A DNA stretch of 34,547 bases from a virus. Taxonomy: Duplodnaviria > Caudoviricetes. This document shows positions 1,171 to 33,967 of this stretch, piece after piece. Below the pieces are notes generated by a model. The model ran no database searches. It was given only the letters and a program-made list of their open reading frames with translations, and was not told where the DNA came from. Where the stretch lies: positions 1-34,547 of the IMG/VR virus record IMGVR_UViG_3300037483_000621. One strand, written 5' to 3'. A program made the position numbers and the translations under genes. The first letter of the stretch is position 1. The number at the start of each line of letters is the position of its first letter.

Positions 1171-1205
1171 GCGCGCCCGGAGGGATTCGAACCCCCAACC
1201 TTCTG
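1171..1205. repeat. att core, left junction (displaced tRNA-Arg 3' half)
   Basis: GCGCGCCCGGAGGGATTCGAACCCCCAACCTTCTG, identical to 33932..33966. Confidence 0.97.
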
Positions 1206-2258: not shown

Positions 2259-2534
2259 CTAGGAGTAGCAGCCCACGTCTCGCATGATGGCATCGATGTA
2301 CGCCATGAGTTCGGCGTTGCCCGTGCCGGTACGCTCCCGCTGTTGCGCGTTGTTGGCGTCGGCGGTGTCGAACTCGCCCTGCAGCCCGTCGCAGTCGGCC
2401 GCCACCTCGAGGGAGTCGATGCGGTCCTTCACCGAGGCGTCGTAGTTGTCCCACGGCACGCCACCTCCGTCGCCACACGACGAGAGAGTCAGGGCCGCGA
2501 GCGCGATCGCGCTCGTCTTCACGATGTTGACCAT
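2259..2534 (-). CDS. Small lipoprotein (possible superinfection exclusion protein)
   Basis: Signal peptide with lipobox LSSC; acidic mature part with two more Cys; TAGGGT -10 six nt before ATG. Confidence 0.75.
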   Translation of the reverse strand: MVNIVKTSAIALAALTLSSCGDGGGVPWDNYDASVKDRIDSLEVAADCDGLQGEFDTADANNAQQRERTGTGNAELMAYIDAIMRDVGCYS

Positions 2535-2614
2535 GACTTCACCCTAGCGGCGAGGGCCCGCGGCGTCACGGACCCAACGGCCGCGGCTGTTCGTGAACGA
2601 GCCTCTTCCCCAGT

Positions 2615-2643
2615 TTGACATGATAGGTTTTCTATCGTATGCT
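2615..2643 (+). promoter_or_regulatory. Near-consensus SigA promoter with palindromic operator in the spacer
   Basis: TTGACA(2615-2620)-17 nt-TATGCT(2638-2643); GATAG-N5-CTATC at 2622..2636. Confidence 0.9.
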
Positions 2644-2694
2644 TTAGGTACTAGGTCAGGCACAAGGCCAGACCGAGACCCACAGGGGATTCAG

Positions 2695-2925
2695 ATGCAA
2701 GACAAGTTCTCAGACCACGAAGTACTCGTGGCCCACAGCATCGGCGAAATGGCCGGGATGCTCCACATCGACGGCGGACCCCGCGCAGAGCGCAAGGCCC
2801 GCAACGCCGCCCAAACCCTCGCTGAGGACGTCGCCGCGATCGCGATGTTCTCCCTGCCGAAGATGGCGGTGTTCCGGGGGATGGCAGGCAAGATCGCCGC
2901 AGACCACGTCCGCAAGTACTCATAG
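2695..2925 (+). CDS. 76-aa protein of unknown function; candidate anti-CRISPR/anti-defence protein
   Basis: ATG 2695 after ACAGGGGA RBS; first gene behind the strong promoter and upstream of an Aca2-like gene. Function inferred from context only. Confidence 0.75.
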   Translation: MQDKFSDHEVLVAHSIGEMAGMLHIDGGPRAERKARNAAQTLAEDVAAIAMFSLPKMAVFRGMAGKIAADHVRKYS

Positions 2926-2931
2926 GGAGAG

Positions 2932-2953
2932 GGCCCCGGGGAAACCCGGGGCC
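2932..2953 (+). other. Perfect 9-bp GC hairpin with GAAA tetraloop, intergenic
   Basis: GGCCCCGGG-GAAA-CCCGGGGCC with no U-tract. Confidence 0.8.
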
Positions 2954-2982
2954 ACACCCCGCCCAACACCACAGGAGAGACC

Positions 2983-3366
2983 ATGAAGAATCAGACCGAA
3001 GACCAGATGACCGGCGCCGAGTTCCGATGCCTGCGCGAACAACTCGGCCTCACCGTCGCATGGCTGTTCGACTACCTCGGCGTAGGTGAAGCCACCGTGA
3101 ACCGGTGGCAAGACGGCAAGATGAACATCGCGCCCGGCGTCGTCGACGACATGCTCGAGCTCGAGGCGATCGCCGCCAAGTCCGTAGCGGCGGCCGTCGC
3201 TCGCCTCGACGGCACCAACGAGCCTCTGTTGACCGTTCCGCGCACTGACGCAGCGCTGCTGCGCGAACACCCCGACGACACCTACCCAGCCTCTTGGCAC
3301 CGCGCAATCGCCTCGCGCGTCCGCGAGCGCGTGCCGGGTCTGCGGATCGAGTTCGTCGCCGAGTAG
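2983..3366 (+). CDS. Aca2/YdiL (DUF1870)-like HTH regulator
   Basis: MTGAEFRCLREQLGLT...VGEATVNRWQDGKMNIAPGVVDDMLEL follows the Aca2/DUF1870 pattern, with a C-terminal dimerisation-like region; ~125 aa; ACAGGAGA RBS. Confidence 0.8.
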   Translation: MKNQTEDQMTGAEFRCLREQLGLTVAWLFDYLGVGEATVNRWQDGKMNIAPGVVDDMLELEAIAAKSVAAAVARLDGTNEPLLTVPRTDAALLREHPDDTYPASWHRAIASRVRERVPGLRIEFVAE

Positions 3367-3409
3367 GCGACACCTTGTGCGTTCGGCCTGAATCCCCGGG
3401 ACGCACAAA

Positions 3410-3455
3410 GACGCCCCCTCACCCTGCCCGGCGAACCGGTGGGTGAGGGGGCGTC
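3410..3455. terminator. Hairpin between the convergent accessory operon and late operon
   Basis: 15-bp inverted repeat GACGCCCCCTCACCC / GGGTGAGGGGGCGTC; second hairpin at 3375..3408. Confidence 0.8.
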
Positions 3456-25913: not shown

Positions 25914-26242
25914 GACTTCTTGTCCTTCCGGTATGCGGGGTCCTTCGGATTCGTGATGGTGTCTTCGTGGACGACCTGGCCGTCCGGGAGGATGTACGTG
26001 TCCCGGAAGCCCACCATCGGCGAGCGTCCGTGCTCATCCGCATGATCACGCGGGACCGGATTCGGGACACCACGTCGACGCACCAGCGGACGGCTCTTCA
26101 CCCACGCACGCAGGCCCGCGGAAGACCGCTGCCCGACATAGGTGATGTGCATCTGCCGCGAGCGCTCCTGCAGGGAGTCCCAGTTCGGGTACACCTCACG
26201 GAGCGCCTTCAACAAGACGGCAGGCGGCGTCGGGGCGGTCAT
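25910..26242 (-). CDS. Hypothetical protein
   Basis: ATGA-coupled to the methyltransferase stop. Confidence 0.7.
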   Translation of the reverse strand: MTAPTPPAVLLKALREVYPNWDSLQERSRQMHITYVGQRSSAGLRAWVKSRPLVRRRGVPNPVPRDHADEHGRSPMVGFRDTYILPDGQVVHEDTITNPKDPAYRKDKKS

Positions 26243-27093
26243 GCGGTCACCCTCAGCTGCTCTAGAAGGTCGGGTGATGAGATGTGGCGGTTCGACCACA
26301 CCACCTCAGTGCGCGCTCCGTACACGCCGCCCTGGGCGGTCCCCGAGGCGATCTCTACACGGTCCCAGTCGGCGTACAAACGCTCATACAGCGGCGACGA
26401 GTACCCCGAGATCACGACTGACGCTTTCGCAGCCAACAGCGACGCGGCGAGCGCAACGTGTTCGGGCTCGCTCACCATCTCGTGGCGGTACCCGTAGGAG
26501 TTCCTGCTCGAGCGCAGGTATGGCGGGTCGGCATAGATCAGGACGTCGGGGTGCGGGGCGTAGCGGTCGATCATGACGTCTGCGTTGAGCGTCTCGAGCG
26601 TGACGTTCTGCAGGCGTTCCGCGAGCGCTGCCATGCGGTCGCAGTAGGCGCGGAGGTATCCGGGCAGGCTGAGGCTTGAGCCGTTGGGGTCGACGTGCAT
26701 GCGCCACTGTGAGGTGGAGGACTTCGACGCCCGGCCTTGTGCGAACACGGTGAAGACCCTGCGGGCAGCTTCGAGCTCATCGGCCGGGGTGCGGGGTGAC
26801 GGTTCGACGTAGACACGAGTGGCGTTCTCGTACTCGGCGCGAGCATGCGGTGTCAATACGCAGGCCCGGATCAGTTCATCGGGTCGGTCGCGGAGGACCC
26901 GCCAGAACGTCATCAACGCTTGGTCCTTGTCGGACACGGTCTCCATGCGAGAGGGGCGCTTCGCGAGGAGCACCGAGAGCCCGCCCGCGAACGGCTCCAC
27001 GTAGTGCTCGTGTTGCGGGAACAGGGCGACGATCGCCGGCGCGACGCGCTGCTTCCCACCGAAGTACGGGAACGGAGGTGCGAGCGCGGTCAT
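26239..27093 (-). CDS. Orphan N6-adenine DNA methyltransferase (Dam/D12 class)
   Basis: PFPYFGGK, YVEPFAGG (SAM binding), YADPPY (catalytic), RTEVVWSN. Confidence 0.95.
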   Translation of the reverse strand: MTALAPPFPYFGGKQRVAPAIVALFPQHEHYVEPFAGGLSVLLAKRPSRMETVSDKDQALMTFWRVLRDRPDELIRACVLTPHARAEYENATRVYVEPSPRTPADELEAARRVFTVFAQGRASKSSTSQWRMHVDPNGSSLSLPGYLRAYCDRMAALAERLQNVTLETLNADVMIDRYAPHPDVLIYADPPYLRSSRNSYGYRHEMVSEPEHVALAASLLAAKASVVISGYSSPLYERLYADWDRVEIASGTAQGGVYGARTEVVWSNRHISSPDLLEQLRVTA

Positions 27094-28097
27094 GCGGGCT
27101 CCTGGACCGTGTGCTGCTCGTTGGGGTTGTCGATGTTCTCCCAGATACCAGGTGGCGGGTATGCGCGGTTCATGACGTGCGTGGGGTCAGGCGTGATGGG
27201 CTGGTAGCGCAGCCGCTTCCACAGTTCATCGATGACTTGGAACGTCTCGACGGGGACCTCGGTCACGTCGTCGGCGAGGACCTGGGACACGAGCACGCTC
27301 GTGTTGCTCAGGCGCGTGTTCAGGCGAGCGTGGTCGTACCCGATCGCGAACAGCGACTGCACCCGGCGGCGAGCGCCAACCACCGGCACCGAGCGGCGCG
27401 GTTGCACATCGGGTCGCGATCCTGAGGGGGGTCGGGGTACGACTGGACGCGGACGCGGCGCACTCGATGCCGGCGGCGTGACCATCTTGGCAGAGGTCAA
27501 TGCTTCGCGGCGTACCTCCGGGCGCAGCTCGTACTTCTTGACACGCTGGTAGACCGCACCCGACGTCATGTTGAGTTCCGTGGCGATCTCGGCTTGAGTC
27601 TTTCCCTCACCAAGCAGTGCGCGGATCTCGTCGTTCAGGGCTAGTGATTCGGGCGACGGTTCCCGACCACCACGGCGCTTGTTGCGCACGGGTGACACAG
27701 CGGCGGCCGTCACCTCGACCGGTGTGGGGGCGTAGGGGCCGTCGACGTCGTATGCCCGCGCCGGATCCTCGACCACGGGGTCCTTGACGTGCTCGATCGC
27801 CTGGCCTTCCGGTGCGGCCCTCCAGTCGGGCCACACACGTTGCTCGTTCACACACTGCTTGGCCTCGATCGCGTCGAGGATCTCCTGAGCGTGGAACCCC
27901 TGCCGCAGCGCACCGTCGAACCCCAAGATCAGGAGGTCAGCCCACTCCGACACGTCGTCCGGATGGGCCTCAATCTCCACGAGCTCCTTACGGATGTGGT
28001 CGAGAACACCCGCGAGGCGTTCACCAGGCCCGAACGTCTCGAGCGAGAAGCCACGCTGGCGGTACATGTGGGCGGCGTTGATGCTGAAGGCGTTCAT
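27090..28097 (-). CDS. DUF550 (MazG-like dATP/dGTP pyrophosphohydrolase) domain fused to HTH domain(s)
   Basis: FSLETFGPG...DHIRKELVEI...EWADLLILGFDGA...WPDWR...IEHVK; central GKTQAEIATELNMTSGAVY HTH; C-terminal GARRRVQSLFAIGY domain. Confidence 0.85.
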   Translation of the reverse strand: MNAFSINAAHMYRQRGFSLETFGPGERLAGVLDHIRKELVEIEAHPDDVSEWADLLILGFDGALRQGFHAQEILDAIEAKQCVNEQRVWPDWRAAPEGQAIEHVKDPVVEDPARAYDVDGPYAPTPVEVTAAAVSPVRNKRRGGREPSPESLALNDEIRALLGEGKTQAEIATELNMTSGAVYQRVKKYELRPEVRREALTSAKMVTPPASSAPRPRPVVPRPPSGSRPDVQPRRSVPVVGARRRVQSLFAIGYDHARLNTRLSNTSVLVSQVLADDVTEVPVETFQVIDELWKRLRYQPITPDPTHVMNRAYPPPGIWENIDNPNEQHTVQEPA

Positions 28098-32874: not shown

Positions 32875-33302
32875 CACGCCACCAGCCCTAGCGAGACACA
32901 ACCCGTGTCGGTAGCGTGGGTGCAATTCGATGGGGAGGAAATGCCGTGGCTAACGATTCTGTGCTTCCGAGCACTTGGTGCCGTCATCCTGAGGGTGAGA
33001 CCGCGCGTTATTGGTTGGAGATCGTCGGGGACGGCGGCGACGCCGACTTGTGCGATGGGTGTGTGGCCGAGTTGCGGTTGGCGGTGCAGCTTGCGCGGTC
33101 GCGCGGTGTGCCCTTCGCATTCGATTGGGGCTTCCCGGAGGATCAGCCCATGGTTGTGATCGTGGGCGACGATGCGACGGGGCCCGACGTCGTGGAGTAC
33201 TCGCTCACTGACGACACCGAGGTGACGCTCACTGTCGAGGAGGGTGACAGGCAAGACGATGTGATCGTTCTGAACGGCAAGGCTGCAGGCTAGACGCATC
33301 AC
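32874..33302 (-). CDS. Antisense bridging ORF (142 aa)
   Basis: GAGGAGG RBS with start overlapping the cro stop; stop overlaps the next ATG; spans all of 32946..33293. Confidence 0.4.
   Translation of the reverse strand: MMRLACSLAVQNDHIVLPVTLLDSERHLGVVSERVLHDVGPRRIVAHDHNHGLILREAPIECEGHTARPRKLHRQPQLGHTPIAQVGVAAVPDDLQPITRGLTLRMTAPSARKHRIVSHGISSPSNCTHATDTGCVSLGLVA
32946..33293 (+). CDS. Counter-oriented acidic accessory protein (115 aa, CxxC)
   Basis: GGGGAGG RBS before GTG 32946; TAGCGT -10 at 32912; very D/E-rich. Confidence 0.7.
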   Translation: MANDSVLPSTWCRHPEGETARYWLEIVGDGGDADLCDGCVAELRLAVQLARSRGVPFAFDWGFPEDQPMVVIVGDDATGPDVVEYSLTDDTEVTLTVEEGDRQDDVIVLNGKAAG

Positions 33303-33535
33303 GCCACCTCCTCGAGGTGACGTCGGGCGGCAGCAGTGCGGGCCTCCTGCTCAAGAAGCCTCTGCGCTGCGAGCGCGCGGATCTCAGACTCGAGGAACAG
33401 TCGAGCTCCAGTGGGGCCGGGCACTTTCACGTCGACGCGGAGGATGCCGCTGTCCGCCCACCTGATGGCTGTGCGTTGACTCACCCCGAGGATCGCCGCG
33501 GCGTCTCTGGTCGTTACTTGTCGAGTTGTTGACAT
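33299..33535 (-). CDS. Cro-like / excisionase-family HTH (HTH_17-like)
   Basis: VTTRDAAAILGVSQRTAIRWADSG...GARLF; divergent from the repressor; first early gene. Confidence 0.88.
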   Translation of the reverse strand: MSTTRQVTTRDAAAILGVSQRTAIRWADSGILRVDVKVPGPTGARLFLESEIRALAAQRLLEQEARTAAARRHLEEVA

Positions 33536-33542
33536 GTGACTA

Positions 33543-33571
33543 ACTATCGCCCGGTGCCTACGACGTGTCAA
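33543..33571 (-). promoter_or_regulatory. Early lytic promoter (leaderless)
   Basis: TTGACA-17 nt-GATAGT, 7 nt before the cro ATG. Confidence 0.8.
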
Positions 33572-33611
33572 GCGCAACACGACATTTGGGCGTGTCGCAG
33601 ACATTGCGCAC

Positions 33612-33670: not shown

Positions 33671-33967
33671 ATGATTCCCGAATTCACGATCGGTGATCGA
33701 CTGCGCAAGGCCCGCGAACTTGCGGACATGGAGCAGATTCCGTTTGCGACCAAGATCGGCGTCTCGCGCGCGAGCATCACGAACTGGGAGAACGGCCACA
33801 CCGTGCCCAAGCGGATGGTCCTCAACGCGTGGGCTCTCGCTACCGGCGTGCCGGTCGAGTGGCTTGAAACGGGAGCTGTTCCGCGGAACATGCACCCCGA
33901 TGGGCGCATGCCGCGTGCTGTTGGAGATACTGCGCGCCCGGAGGGATTCGAACCCCCAACCTTCTGA
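33671..33967 (+). CDS. Immunity repressor (XRE HTH), prophage-truncated 98-aa form
   Basis: IGDRLRKARE...FATKIGVSRASITNWENG...VPVEWLETG; reads through the att core; stop completed by the first host base. Confidence 0.93.
   Translation: MIPEFTIGDRLRKARELADMEQIPFATKIGVSRASITNWENGHTVPKRMVLNAWALATGVPVEWLETGAVPRNMHPDGRMPRAVGDTARPEGFEPPTF
33932..33966. repeat. att core, right junction (intact tRNA side)
   Basis: Identical to 1171..1205. Confidence 0.97.

Follow-up and report, generated by a model that had tools for sequence, protein, structure and literature searches.

One of the closest described relatives of the locus analyzed here is the acrIF8-aca2 operon of Pectobacterium phage ZF40. The operator of this operon has the core TTCG-N6-CGAA, in which 8 nt separate the inner C from the inner G (PMC6765145); Arg30 of the ZF40 regulator is reported to contact the C9:G45 pair by a hydrogen bond to its G, and the substitution R30A to disrupt binding (PMC8633003). 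Aca2 also binds hairpins in the 5′-UTR, and an "actino-motif" was defined earlier, by Birkholz et al. 2024 as cited in PMC13551039, a source which further describes Aca-regulated genes as diverse. An upstream acr gene was reported for only 35 of 1223 (3%) Aca2-like genes (PMC9410906). The Cas5 homologue AcrIB3 is a proven type I-B anti-CRISPR in Listeria (bioRxiv 2023.06.24.545427). In the portions of the literature available to us, we found no report of an actinobacterial aca2 operon with a tested anti-CRISPR.

The window, by which we mean the whole 34,547-nt stretch of DNA analyzed, consists of one prophage and its host flanks. A 35-nt att repeat at 1171-1205 (plus strand), with a copy at 33932-33966, overlaps the 3′ part of a tRNA-Arg gene and marks the prophage boundary. 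The integrase gene occupies 1313-2242, and the genes for holin, tail tube, portal, and terminase are all found on the minus strand. The left host flank is 82% identical to genomes from the family of a Demequina MAG, and the same MAG carries the cassette under study at 86% identity (locus L010), from which a host belonging to that family appears likely. The related prophage G038 lacks exactly positions 2571-3404: its alignment covers 1386-2570 and picks up again at 3405 after 19 nt. This alignment gap marks the cassette as a discrete insert that is optional to the prophage. Other swappable morons are present between integrase and holin. A 91-aa lipoprotein-like ORF (2259-2534, minus strand), divergent from the cassette, occurs also in prophages G038 and G062 but is missing from L001, and G001 has other DNA in its place; its region thus represents a second variable slot. 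Elsewhere in the prophage (26239-28097, minus strand), a DNA adenine methyltransferase (PF02086) lies beside a fusion of a dATP/dGTP pyrophosphohydrolase with an HTH domain (PF04447); these are possible further counter-defense genes.

The cassette begins with a sigma-70-type promoter, TTGACA-17-TATGCT (2615-2643, plus strand), which matches the consensus at 10 of 12 positions. An initial annotation had called it the best promoter in the window, a ranking that it shares with a second 10/12 site at 33571 on the minus strand. Four consensus matches are found in the whole window and, since about one is expected by chance per scanned region, the match at 2615 is by itself weak proof; a promoter is present at the equivalent position in 30 of the 32 cassettes described below (strict pattern). 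The other 10/12 site (33543-33571, minus strand) lies upstream of an excisionase-like ORF in the region 33299-33604 and is probably an early lytic promoter. Centered in the spacer between -35 and -10 is the palindrome GATAG-N5-CTATC (2622-2636), located where the initial annotation had placed it and here considered the predicted operator. It is the sole copy in the window at up to one mismatch, where the chance mean is 0.18 and 17 of 100 shuffles contained one. The real support for an operator is comparative: a perfect palindrome with 5-bp arms occupies the spacer in 31 of 32 homologous cassettes, a count that includes shifted palindromes and not only one fixed 17-nt register, against a mean of 0.63 and a maximum of 4 in 1000 shuffles. 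The sequence of the palindrome varies between lineages, as that of a binding site would, and the 17-nt spacer is identical between the window and L010, the cassettes of which are 86% identical overall.

Downstream of this promoter are the two ORFs previously described, of 76 aa (2695-2925) and 127 aa (2983-3366), both on the plus strand and at the coordinates originally given. The RNA structures around them were added by the present analysis. Hairpin 1 of the 5′-UTR (2654-2674, plus strand) ends 20 nt before the start codon and is a predicted Aca2-type RNA site, comprising a 4-bp lower stem, an A.A mismatch, and an upper stem. Its consensus has eight pairs, six of which were imposed by the search pattern and are hence uninformative; of the two free pairs, the one is GC in 27, CG in three, and GU in two of the 32 cassettes, and the other shows 10 double changes with six broken or gapped, so that the covariation in the upper stem amounts to two pairs with compensatory change. 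Hairpin 2 (2675-2692, plus strand) is predicted to pair the Shine-Dalgarno sequence GGGGA (2685-2689). It folds over the ribosome site in 31/32 cassettes, which in GC-rich DNA and without a shuffle control is weak evidence. A third hairpin between the two genes (2932-2953, plus strand), with a 9-bp GC stem and a GAAA loop, is also present in L001 and L010 and possibly lowers the regulator relative to the cargo. No Rfam family scored near its gathering threshold. The claim that the unit has its own terminator calls for a correction. A hairpin at 3375-3408 (plus strand), following the regulator gene, is cassette-specific; the large hairpin at 3410-3455, however, carries a T-run on the minus strand and persists in the cassette-less prophage G038, and so is probably the terminator of the late operon, shared with the cassette.

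Cassettes were defined by a promoter palindrome, a 5′-UTR hairpin, and an Aca2-like gene, and viral and metagenome contigs were scanned with a 5′-UTR pattern derived from close relatives. The scan returned 99 distinct sites, 77 of which have at least 1 kb downstream. Among these 77, 29 possess both the promoter and the Aca2-like gene, 46 neither, and two the gene behind a -35 that departs from the standard; no site had a promoter but lacked the gene. Counting one shorter locus there are 32 cassettes, several of them kin; 25 were obtained from the DNA pattern alone, and seven (the window and six loci) from protein searches, which are circular for this test. The pattern is absent from four annotated phages that possess the regulator and from 13 aca loci, for example Streptomyces solos; it therefore marks only part of the Aca2-like family. 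As the initial annotation had anticipated, a variable slot for small genes lies upstream of the regulator homologues. It holds 41 ORFs in 17 BLAST groups, the cargo family of the window included, after exclusion of three of 44 ORFs as probably spurious; 30/41 have a pI below 5.5, and 31/41 are no longer than 135 aa. No slot protein scanned matched an Acr or defense-related family. Seven cassettes (L070, L072, L090, L098, L114, L116, and L128) carry in first position a basic protein of 167-176 aa with an excisionase/MerR-like N-terminal HTH, which indicates that the slot does not hold inhibitors only. Cargo families that are small and very acidic (pI about 4.1) recur as the first ORFs of L004, L006, L054, L056, L063, L083, L108, L109, L072, L098, and L119. 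Those of their proteins that were scanned had no match in Pfam or NCBIfam, and these families are better candidates for classical Acr proteins or DNA mimics than is the cargo of the window.

The 127-aa protein had been assigned to the Aca2/DUF1870 pattern, an assignment upheld by its predicted fold but not by its Pfam score: Aca2_YdiL (PF08965, DUF1870) gives 21.7 bits (E 2.3e-4), below the gathering cut-off of 23.8, which is exceeded by the homologue P0012 at 27.4. A profile of 10 sequences searched against PDB has Aca2 as its best match (E 7e-9). An AlphaFold2 model was built from 36 sequences (pLDDT 93.7), and the top 10 Foldseek matches to it are Aca2, YdiL, or SO3848, with TMq of 0.73-0.78 over 119-133 columns (0.74-0.77 to the Aca2 entries); every other match among those listed, antitoxins and repressors included, has a TMq of at most 0.40. 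Model, Foldseek, and profile agree on an N-terminal HTH followed by a C-terminal dimerization domain of the Aca2 type. The regulator is thus predicted to have the Aca2 fold, though it lacks two formal hallmarks, namely a Pfam score above the cut-off and Arg30. The N-terminal HTH also gives a weak match to the MqsA family (24.3 bits against a cut-off of 61.8). A function as the immunity repressor of the prophage was considered and ruled out, because there is one operator copy and the gene is absent from prophage G038. Actinobacterial phages in GenBank also carry Aca2-like genes, in 46 records (Typha, Bipper, Corndog, Gilgamesh, Min1, and P1312; L141-L144); among the 40 matches listed, the products are labeled only as HTH, DNA-binding, or hypothetical proteins.

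At the position equivalent to Arg30 of ZF40 Aca2 (Ala37 in the window), 29 of the 32 cassettes have Arg, one has Asp, and the remaining two, those of the window and L010, have Ala. Position -5 of the operator is C in all 50 half-sites of 25 odd-centered Arg-type operators, four even-centered operators being excluded from this tally, and T in 4/4 half-sites of the two Ala-type operators (window and L010), which represent a single evolutionary event. This sub-lineage appears, from sequence comparison, to have changed its specificity, Ala replacing the G-reading Arg and T:A replacing C:G in the operator; no description of such a switch was met within the portions of the literature available. The pattern fits a compensated change, though a single one, and the Asp-type cassette keeps C at -5. 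That cassette (L117) has a distinct CCCCAC operator and constitutes a second specificity variant. Given the reported effect of R30A, one might suppose that Ala37 is instead a natural loss of DNA binding, leaving a decaying cassette or control at the RNA level only. That Ala also occurs in four homologues (77-87% identity), that the spacer is unchanged in L010 while the cassette has diverged, and that the operator base has changed at the matching position all argue against this, and of the explanations considered it is the least credible.

The 76-aa cargo (2695-2925, plus strand, from ATG; pI 8.2) is a predicted three-helix bundle. Twelve relatives were detected at E ≤0.01, all of 76-78 aa, and the 13 sequences of the family share 11 invariant columns; with this uniform length it is a real conserved gene. 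The invariant residues include R36, F60, G65, and R73 in helices 2-3. The pI range of the family, 6.7-9.7, differs from that of the mostly acidic slot proteins. The genomic context was confirmed at the DNA level for the window, L001 (with duplicates), and L010, and two relatives at 55-59%, whose contigs are equal in length to contigs encoding Aca2-like proteins, suggest the same pairing. Partial matches (L003 and three genome matches at E about 8e-4) were set aside. P0016, a probable chimera on a 631-bp contig, the foreign part of which we take to be flagellin, was left out of the alignments. AlphaFold2 produced three helices at a pLDDT of 91 in the best of five models, three of the others scoring 62-67. 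The failure of the initial annotation to recognize this ORF was borne out, there being no match in Pfam, PHROGs, NCBIfam, or PADLOC, Acr and toxin families included, nor among PDB sequences, the ESM Atlas, plasmids, or GenBank phages (the latter queried with P0025). Fold searches retrieved generic helical bundles only (best Foldseek E 0.9-1.2; best VIA Z 7.9, rmsd 2.6, 73 aligned), a result that leaves room for membership in a known family and is no proof of a new fold. In searches of the order (401 genomes) and of the class (401 genomes), G001 alone had the gene. It represents an unannotated three-helix family, not described in those parts of the literature to which we had access.

A link to CRISPR exists in sister loci. 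An orphan Cas5e homologue overlaps the aca stop codon in two of the 32 cassettes (L020:3402-4058 and L023:2182-2859) and in two of the 13 other aca loci (L014:3375-4085 and L021:523-1212); such orphan type I-E Cas5 loci occur in Nostocoides, Gordonia, and a provirus. Two hosts of these loci possess a separate native cas5 beside cas7, and the orphans are 34-42% identical to the native copies. A scan of viral sequences for further orphans returned only the contig of L023. On sequence grounds these genes are candidate Cas5-derived type I-E anti-CRISPRs, and they lend support to an anti-CRISPR function in some of the cassettes, a support that does not extend to the cargo of the window. Within the host family Cas1 was found in 3/78 genomes and Cas5 in 1/78, many of these genomes being incomplete. 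The initial annotation had proposed looking for self-targeting spacers; of 120 spacers from five arrays none matched the window, the best having 10 mismatches. A 19/20 spacer match to L010 was dismissed as chance, since over the full length it has 13 mismatches of 33.

The reading that we favor, at a probability of roughly 60%, is that this optional part of the prophage encodes an Aca2-fold protein that represses its own operon and a 76-aa cargo that acts against a host defense. Upon infection or induction the strong promoter would drive a short surge of cargo synthesis. A dimer of the regulator would then occupy the palindrome in the -35/-10 spacer and, if it behaves as ZF40 Aca2 does, also the 5′-UTR hairpins, hairpin 2 being the one predicted to lie over the ribosome site. 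The cargo would meanwhile bind its target through the conserved face of helices 2-3. Taken separately, autorepression by the regulator is very probable. A non-CRISPR defense as the target of the cargo is only a tentative suggestion, and CRISPR, type I-E first, is unlikely: the Acr function originally proposed for this protein is disfavored by its non-acidic character, the absence of an Acr match in sequence or fold (which new Acr proteins usually lack as well), the rarity of Cas1 and Cas5, the lack of a spacer match, and the 3% rate at which acr genes accompany Aca2-like genes.

The cassette might instead be an autorepressed early moron, the cargo of which has a role outside defense, for instance in keeping other phages out or in modulating the physiology of the host. 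Departure of the cargo from the acidic majority is consistent with this, as are the other swappable morons between integrase and holin, the reported diversity of Aca-regulated genes, and the scarcity of CRISPR in the host family; yet a tight shut-off in the lysogen would suit a short burst rather than lasting exclusion, and orphan Cas5e genes are present in sister cassettes. We regard this as improbable, though deserving of attention. A type II toxin-antitoxin pair, in which the HTH protein binds a 76-aa toxin, had been named as the main alternative. It now appears weaker and is very unlikely: a small, autorepressed gene pair, the MqsA match, and the apparent travel of both genes together in diverged relatives would fit it, but the regulator has the Aca2 fold over its full length, a single regulator family stands behind 17 cargo groups, and the cargo matches no toxin family. 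A similarly slender chance attaches to the 76-aa protein being a co-regulator or anti-repressor that acts with the HTH protein or with other phage repressors. It is helical and neutral to basic, and basic HTH proteins occupy the slot of seven cassettes; however, it matches no HTH or regulator family, and its own family is missing from 29/32 cassettes.

A bolder extension of anti-defense action by the cargo, which is somewhat doubtful, is that the 76-aa family founds a new class of inhibitors directed against non-CRISPR actinobacterial defense, and that its Aca2 regulator rewired the operator by the Arg-to-Ala change. If so, the 32 cassettes would amount to a list of actinobacterial anti-defense genes, Cas5e-derived type I-E inhibitors included. 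Candidates for direct tests in the class are the 17 groups of cargo and the four genes for orphan Cas5e. The Arg-to-Ala change, a natural one accompanied by a matching base in the operator, offers a clean way to probe how DNA, and possibly RNA, is read by Aca2. Since the design of the regulation is already known, the gain would lie in the function of the cargo.

Among the known systems, the solo Aca2-fold proteins YdiL (1S4K) and SO3848 (2OX6) have the same fold as the regulator, with equally high TM-scores. YdiL is reported without acr (PMC9410906), whereas the window has the full layout of operator, UTR, and cargo. AcrIB3 sets a precedent for the orphan Cas5e of the sister cassettes, being reported as 38% identical to native Cas5 where the orphans are 34-42% identical; it is of type I-B, the orphans are type I-E candidates, and the window itself has no such gene. 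Phage ZF40 acrIF8-aca2 (Aca2 PF08965; PDB 7VJO/7VJQ/8W35) is alike in regulator fold and length, and likewise possesses a small upstream gene, a palindrome in the promoter, and a second inverted repeat in the 5′-UTR. It differs in that the regulator of the window is only about 20% identical, has Ala at the Arg30 position, and faces a GATAG rather than a GTTC-type operator, in an actinobacterial host and with a cargo unrelated to any Acr found; the distance from inner C to G, 8 nt in ZF40, is 9 nt in most cassettes and 8 nt in four. For the actino-motif operons, neither the cargo family of the window nor the Ala/T switch is mentioned in the part of PMC13551039 available. These operons are, as cited there, actinobacterial, with a DNA motif followed by an RNA hairpin in the 5′-UTR, and their aca1/aca2 layout fits that of the cassette. 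By this analogy the cassette class is probably the published Aca2 actino-motif class, the motif being known to us through that citation, and loci of this type may already be listed in the figures and data sets of PMC13551039 and of the Nature paper from 2024.
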